Below, in pieces: positions 1-141 of a stretch of 44,405 nucleotides of DNA. The stretch lies in sequence record PQ571288.1; one strand, 5' to 3'. This DNA is from Escherichia phage EC3-1. The stretch's first letter is position 1; the number at the start of each line of letters is the position of its first letter. The position numbers were made by a program, and so were the translations under genes. Under the pieces are notes generated by a model, which worked only from the letters and a program-made list of their open reading frames with translations, had not been told where the DNA came from and searched no databases.

Positions 1-141
1 ACGTTGTACATTGTTAAAATCATTTTCATCCATTCCGTCGGTGTCGAACGTAAAGAAGTTGCGTTTGTTCCCGATAATTACGCGCTCTGAAATATCGATG
101 CCGTAAACTTCTTTGATTGCGGAAACTACGCTTGCGGTCGC
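1..141. repeat. Terminal direct repeat, copy 1; identical to 44265..44405 (circular closure or terminal redundancy)
   Basis: Base-by-base identity of the first and last 141 nt of the window; implied unit length 44,264 bp. Confidence 0.9.

Follow-up and report, generated by a model that had tools for sequence, protein, structure and literature searches.

The window analysed here (the whole stretch of DNA, 44,405 nucleotides long) begins and ends with the same 141 nucleotides. We are confident that this repeat is the closure overlap that an assembler, most likely MEGAHIT with k=141, left on the cyclic graph of a pac-headful Kagunavirus. The 141-nt repeat very probably has no biological counterpart, and the window is most likely one complete genome, circularly closed, of 44,264 bp.

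Positions 1-141 and 44265-44405 are identical at 141 of 141 positions, and this is the longest exact prefix of the window that is also its suffix; the window contains no N, and the odds of such a match between the two ends arising by chance are about 4^-141. The pair is the sole long direct repeat present, the runner-up families being imperfect and measuring 27-41 nt. Taking 141 from 44,405 leaves the unit of 44,264 bp, so that the coordinates of the repeat and the unit length given in the first-pass annotation are reproduced exactly by our computation. The features at and around the join are as follows.

1..141, no strand: left copy of the overlap, entirely within the coding sequence of the gene that spans the join, hereafter the junction gene (exact prefix equal to suffix; repeat family D1)
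44265..44405, no strand: right copy of the overlap, redundant; trimming one copy gives the 44,264-bp unit
1..150, minus strand: 5' part of the junction gene, codons 1-50 (phrog_7673 match; full-length homologs)
44196..44264, minus strand: 3' part of the junction gene, codons 51-72 and the stop codon TAA (ORF reconstruction; alignments with UTEC10 and a Logan contig)
171..214, minus strand: sigma-70-like promoter element (TTGCAC, 17-nt spacer, TACTAT; repeats I1-I3 and D4, with the hexamers read from the sequence)

Rebuilding the open reading frame on the circular unit, we observed that the junction gene starts with an ATG at 150 on the minus strand, runs for 50 codons to base 1, continues for 22 codons from 44264 to 44199 and ends with a TAA at 44198-44196, giving a product of 72 aa. 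The motif AAGGAA lies 8 nt upstream of the ATG. The segment 44405..44265 duplicates codons 4-50, and thus the right end of the window carries the junction gene minus its first three codons and the left end its first 50 codons. It had been proposed earlier that a minus-strand gene starting at 150 crosses the junction in frame and continues at 44405; the first part of this proposal stands, the second does not, as the frame resumes at 44264.

Relatives of the phage run through the join. Full-length, uninterrupted homologs of the 72-aa protein are found, internal to the record, in 169 phage records. When a 3-kb query spanning the join was used, the join region was internal to the record in all 40 relatives among the matches listed (in K1H, for example, the match covers 33950-36874 of 41632). 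The DNA of UTEC10 aligns in one unbroken stretch at 90% identity, starting 297 nt ahead of the join and ending 243 nt past it, and a Logan contig likewise aligns through it unbroken. Judged by these alignments, the DNA is biologically continuous across the join, and single-copy in the relatives. Scans of the whole window with Rfam and for tRNA genes were empty, which leaves the ends unexplained by any RNA element or tRNA integration site, and a promoter and terminator scan of positions 1-1100 showed nothing notable inside the 141-nt repeat. The earlier view that the window is a complete genome with a 141-bp end overlap, and that the repeat is biologically continuous sequence, is borne out by the exact match of the ends and by the reading frame and the relatives' DNA that run through the join.

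A k-list ending in 141 is the default of MEGAHIT, and the overlap is exactly as long as the final value of that list. In the work describing COBRA, both metaSPAdes and MEGAHIT are reported to leave end sequences of maxK length, and the k-list of MEGAHIT 1.2.9 is given as 21,29,39,59,79,99,119,141 (PMC10914622). When a sponge mitogenome assembled with default MEGAHIT was compared with the curated circle, the sole difference was a 141-bp insert, which was an exact copy of the neighbouring region, occurred in no read and was judged by its authors to be an assembly artefact (PMC11572364). SPAdes has similarly given identical contig ends of 77 bp (i.e. k-sized) on circularly permuted Salmonella phages, with genes spanning the ends (PMC9409062). 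The window resembles these k-length overlaps of circular contigs (141 for MEGAHIT; 55, 77 or 127 for SPAdes) in having exact ends, a length equal to MEGAHIT's largest default k and a gene across the ends, and its sequence shows no difference from them; here it is from the agreement of 141 with k that we infer the assembler, most likely MEGAHIT.

We propose that the assembly graph of the phage would have formed a cycle because the virion DNAs are permuted, such that reads would tile every point of the map, and that a de Bruijn assembler would have written a k-long duplicate at the closure. The biological sequence would then hold a single copy of the 141 nt, and the break of the contig within a small gene would be an arbitrary position. 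Eight independent full-length contigs of 42-45 kb with an identical TerL, each from a different sample (L003-L010; Logan runs and ENA assemblies), carry the TerL gene at eight different positions and orientations, which argues that break points in this group are indeed arbitrary. We stress that a k-long overlap alone is silent on the true ends of the DNA: any cyclic graph, including that of a collapsed direct terminal repeat (DTR) of at least k, gives such an overlap, which is therefore in itself no proof of permutation. That the virion DNA is permuted is suggested by analogy with the relatives, not by the overlap.

By sequence comparison, the phage is a Kagunavirus (Guernseyvirinae) siphophage. 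Megablast searches with both halves of the window returned about 500 related records, all of them Kagunavirus or Jerseyvirus-type, with the top matches all belonging to Kagunavirus and the best records reaching 88-92% identity over 75-83% of each half. Multiplying coverage by identity gives about 0.71-0.74 for each half's best record (a different record for the two halves), which is below the ICTV species line of 95%, so the genome probably represents a distinct species. Its gene order is that of Sciku, fBC-Eco01 and the Logan and ENA contigs; against Sciku and fBC-Eco01, 67-69% of its first 24 kb aligns, at 91.5% nucleotide identity. Profile searches identified a helicase-primase, an exonuclease, a DNA polymerase, an SNF2 helicase, a ssDNA-binding/annealing protein and a methyltransferase on the plus strand; on the minus strand they identified a tailspike, a J-like tail protein and a tape-measure protein, followed after the tail genes by the major head protein, a head-morphogenesis protein, the portal, the large terminase subunit (TerL) and the small terminase subunit (TerS).

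Several features of gene content were observed alongside. The SNF2-type helicase (11088-12662, plus strand, 524 aa) has no match to an intein (Hint) domain in Pfam, whereas Sciku and Shashou have an intein-containing helicase annotated; intein presence thus varies within the genus. In the family A DNA polymerase (7523-9706, plus strand, 727 aa), residues 446-539 match phrog_93, an 'endonuclease', and the Pfam domain DNA_pol_A covers only residues 372-472; the stretch matching phrog_93 could represent a domain insertion. A plus-strand island (23647-25488), with flanking structural genes on the opposite strand, separates the tail module from the head module and includes two genes.

23647-24777, plus strand: DNA-repair exonuclease
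24774-25244, plus strand: free-standing HNH endonuclease, directly after the exonuclease

TerL is identical over all 416 aa in 219 blocks of a public assembly collection, 122 of which have contigs of 20-50 kb. The contigs retrieved through TerL were all other than the source contig of the window, for which an exact 40-mer search of IMG/VR also gave no hit; the window's tailspike and tape-measure proteins had no entry in the records. What lies between the structural genes varies among independent contigs sharing this TerL: inserts include a PAPS reductase (L006) and a 459-aa ORF between TerL and the portal (L009), and one contig has an HNH gene in its lysis cassette (L004). The lineage is very common in sequenced samples and its early-gene region is highly mosaic.

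The packaging proteins of the window are nearly identical to those of characterized relatives.

37146..37730, minus strand: TerS (phrog_3064, E 1.5e-72; longest ORF 194 aa, with the start in the relatives' annotation at Met14, window 37691); identity to Sciku 93%, fBC-Eco01 97%, fEg-Eco19 97%
35899..37149, minus strand: TerL (Terminase_6N and Terminase_6C domains); identity to Sciku 98.3%, fBC-Eco01 99.5%, fEg-Eco19 99.3%
34405..35886, minus strand: portal of the DUF4055 type (phrog_145, E 1e-147; Pfam DUF4055); identity to Sciku 95%, fBC-Eco01 96%, fEg-Eco19 96%

Searching PDB sequences with TerL and TerS by phmmer, we found no meaningful match to solved terminase structures, and the label 'P1-type' or 'P22-like' consequently rests on PhageTerm and on the annotations of others. 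The clade to which TerL belongs is headful according to those relatives whose ends have been analysed by PhageTerm or by experiment. By analogy with them, the virion DNA is expected to be circularly permuted and terminally redundant, packaged from a pac site and free of a 141-bp DTR. TerS and TerL would cut the concatemer at the pac site, the DNA would then be threaded into the head toward decreasing window coordinates, and the next cut, which would be imprecise, would follow when the head has taken in a little over one genome length.

The same end analyses bear on the alternative that a longer exact DTR, of at least 141 bp, lies elsewhere in the genome and was collapsed by the assembler, in which case the virion DNA would have fixed rather than permuted ends and the 141-nt overlap would be no less artefactual. 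If a DTR is no shorter than k, its collapse would be expected to yield a cyclic de Bruijn graph equally well, and the authors of the fEg-Eco19 study list discrete left-end and right-end restriction fragments. We nevertheless consider a collapsed DTR very unlikely. PhageTerm classified Sciku, whose genome was linearized at the small terminase gene, as headful (PMC6753286) and fEg-Eco19, which gave a peak in just one orientation, as P1-type pac headful (PMC9038960), and no obvious termini were found for fBC-Eco01 at 651x (PMC9825357). For K47, of the sister genus Jerseyvirus, PhageTerm indicated headful packaging, the EcoRV digest fits a circular map and the PFGE band is broad (PMC10783031); Se_F1, of the same sister genus, was classed by PhageTerm as 'redundant, random, permuted'. 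Furthermore, neither the fEg-Eco19 nor the Ivi record has a prefix that is repeated as its suffix.

Of the two options named in the first-pass annotation, that of a circular or permuted assembly closure is thus backed by the continuity of the join, by an overlap equal to the final k of MEGAHIT and by the headful relatives with near-identical packaging proteins, for which no terminal repeats are reported; we find no support for the other, a short direct terminal repeat. Under this second option the repeat would be a genuine T7-like DTR of 141 bp, each virion DNA running from window base 1 to 44405. The repeat is exact, and CheckV-type tools would call such a contig 'DTR'. Like the genomes with T7-, SP6- and K1E/K1F-like DTRs, the window has a direct repeat in the range of 100-300 bp at both ends of some 40-45 kb, and 141 bp is within the known sizes of short DTRs (e.g. 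the real repeats of 165-289 bp in K1E/K1F-like podophages; PMC5582158). However, those repeats are real, occupy positions that are conserved among relatives and occur with another terminase clade, whereas the repeat in the window starts and ends in mid-frame within a small gene, of which the 169 records have a single copy away from their ends. No relative's record ends here among the 40 matches listed. The packaging proteins are 93-99.5% identical to those of phages that are headful, for which no termini were found or which have no terminal repeats, the last being reported for JSSK01 (PMC11641727), and the K1G-type TerL stands apart from short-DTR terminases, the TerL proteins of K1G and K1H clustering with headful ones (PMC5582158). 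The mapped terminus of fEg-Eco19 is 1.1 kb away, and the length of a genuine repeat would have to match the maximum k of MEGAHIT by coincidence. We therefore give a genuine 141-bp DTR scarcely any credence. As for the contig being a circular episome or a tandem or concatemeric replicative form from infected cells, and hence silent on virion DNA, concatemer reads in a metagenome would presumably also close the graph, but we accord this practically no weight, given that it is compatible with the closure overlap rather than exclusive of it (the overlap stays an artefact either way), that the genome has the full set of Kagunavirus virion and lysis modules and that the Kagunavirus isolates sequenced are reported to be virulent or lytic.

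Returning to a headful phage with an assembly overlap, the relatives also point to where packaging would begin. The records of fEg-Eco19, fEg-Eco06 and Ivi start at about the same place, and for fEg-Eco19 and Ivi the correspondence is exact: read on the minus strand, both records open at the base equal to window position 43136 and close at the one equal to 43137. We considered whether the shared start is merely a copied convention; for fEg-Eco19 this is countered by the report that its record was opened at the PhageTerm terminus (PMC9038960). By homology, packaging series in the window's phage are predicted to start at 43136/43137, within the following arrangement.

43090..43138, minus strand: predicted pac region, a 49-nt block containing 43137/43136, homologous to the fEg-Eco19 terminus
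43163..43182, minus strand: terminator-like hairpin with a 9-bp stem followed by a T-rich run (-15.6 kcal/mol, z -3.0), invariant in 12 genomes

The 49-nt block, which reads TTTCACCAAACGCAACAATTGAAGCGACTATTGCAGGAGATGCAACAAT from 43138 to 43090, occurs once in the window and contains two GCAACAAT repeats 30 nt apart. It is nearly invariant in the 12-genome alignment, and its flanks are replaced in several of the 12 genomes (a mosaic intergenic region). The 127 nt past the terminus (window 43136-43010) are 95% identical to fEg-Eco19. On the minus strand the hairpin (43182 to 43163) precedes the block and a promoter-like element (43068 to 43040) comes after it. This order of terminator, pac block and promoter is shared with fEg-Eco19, as are near-identical TerS, TerL and portal proteins, although fEg-Eco19 differs at the species level (about 89% identical across 83% of the second half) and has other early-gene content. 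We infer that the phage uses this pac site and, from the orientation of the fEg-Eco19 record, that packaging proceeds toward decreasing window coordinates. A distance of 1,128 bp separates the site from the contig join.

The pac site of P22 is inside the small terminase gene; the site predicted here is, unlike that of P22, not within this gene and lies 5.4 kb upstream of it. In classical headful packaging a sharp right end is not expected. Although the left-end and right-end fragments of fEg-Eco19 were described as being 'in perfect agreement' with a map that is linear, the phage was classified as P1-type headful (PMC9038960), and Kagunavirus DNA may have better-defined ends than the textbook headful model describes.

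The gene that happens to be split by the contig ends is of some interest in its own right. Its product matches phrog_7673 ('internal head protein') with an E-value of 9.5e-27 over profile positions 20-90 of 90. Nine of the 169 homologs share at least 90% amino acid identity with it, and these are in Kagunavirus-like genomes; other relatives have a different small gene in the same slot, which indicates that the junction gene is accessory. It is the first in a series of small minus-strand ORFs spanning about 1.1 kb, a short leftward operon that is closed by the hairpin at 43163..43182.

Along its whole length the junction protein shares 54-58% identity with proteins from T-even-type and other large myophages, and it is in this identity to proteins from the internal-protein loci of Mosigvirus, Dhakavirus and other myophages that its likeness to T-even internal head proteins consists. 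The homolog in Mosigvirus SF is situated at the internal-protein locus and adjoins a gene whose product starts MKTYQEFIAE; the homolog itself starts MKTFNEFISE, and the homologs in Avunavirus Av-05, Dhakavirus vB_EcoM_005 and PTE-Eco05 have the same N-terminal signal. All four of these myophage proteins begin with MK(T/S)(F/Y)(N/Q)EFI(S/T)E and a short linker, the former of which we take to be the T4 capsid-targeting sequence. In T4 this sequence is reportedly cut off by the prohead protease, as Mullaney and Black are said to have described in 1996. The signal is absent from the window protein, from UTEC10 and from 14 of 14 close homologs in the alignment, all 14 of which start at the same MNK/MKK position, directly past the position of the signal. 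The loci used for comparison were as follows.

L013, 1456-1719: comparison locus for the junction gene
L014, 356-619: comparison locus for the junction gene
L015, 347-619: comparison locus for the junction gene
L016, 344-619: comparison locus for the junction gene

The Kagunavirus protein thus differs from T-even internal head proteins in having no targeting signal and in being encoded by the first gene behind an early-type promoter, and despite the phrog_7673 match we set aside its designation as an internal head protein, as it is without the capsid-targeting signal. An AlphaFold (AF2) model of P0001, a protein 97% identical to the junction protein, has a pLDDT of 90.7 and a helix-strand-helix-strand-strand order. 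Comparison of this model with the PDB gave no match at E<=0.001, IPI* included, and comparison with BFVD gave a single match, which is unnamed; at the sequence level the junction protein has no match among PDB sequences, and a word-indexed protein search returned close relatives only. With no fold match in the PDB, a likeness of the junction protein to IPI* is unsupported. It is conceivable, though we regard it as doubtful, that the junction gene is a T-even-type injected effector that has lost its signal and is now the first gene of the siphophage's earliest leftward operon. If this were true, one effector family would have two delivery routes, being either pre-made and injected or expressed right after infection. 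The family is presumably anti-defence, by analogy with T4 IPI*, and that such a role could be exercised through early expression rather than injection is something we can only hypothesize. As a separate observation, two junction-gene homologs from other public assemblies, P0019 and P0021, diverge from the family after about residues 48-58; the tail of P0021 follows an alternative reading frame that is present in the window, which suggests frameshifting variants or assembly errors in junction-gene homologs.

The element in front of the junction gene at 171..214, a putative promoter on the strength of its hexamers and spacing, is one of four copies, and the promoter-like stretch in which it lies (window 165-243) is conserved in all relatives examined. 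The other copies are listed below.

23347-23390, plus strand: copy of the promoter-like element
32528-32595, plus strand: copy of the promoter-like element
43026-43072, minus strand: copy of the promoter-like element

Two families of promoter-like repeats can be distinguished in the window. In the first, TTGCAC is followed by 17 nt, TACTAT and then TCACTTA. The second has the form TTGACAC.TGAATAGTT.GCTATTATAGTT, with plus-strand copies at 3970-3999, 4014-4043, 6750-6779 and 10312-10341. Both contain an AATAG...CTATT palindrome and are positioned at the starts of transcription units; they may represent two temporal promoter classes or the binding sites of a regulator. GC-rich hairpins of the form AAGGCCCCG...CGGGGCCTT are located at module boundaries (12970-13010, 25480-25520 and 32795-32835), and a perfect 28-nt inverted pair, TAGCGCCCCGCTTTATGGCGGGGCTTTA, is found at 453-480 and 32229-32256. 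These hairpins and the 28-nt pair look like shared, possibly bidirectional, terminators.

The significance of the 141-nt overlap is for curation only. One copy should be trimmed before gene calling, genome-size statistics and similarity calculations. On the linear contig the split gene for the 72-aa protein would be missed or truncated, and it needs to be annotated. The record is best described as circularly closed and complete, as the label 'DTR' would wrongly imply T7-like ends. Should the circle be re-opened at a point with biological meaning, that point would be the predicted pac cut at 43136/43137, read on the minus strand, whereas convention would favour the small terminase gene. The genus is well sampled and its packaging strategy well known, and this phage probably adds one more species to it.
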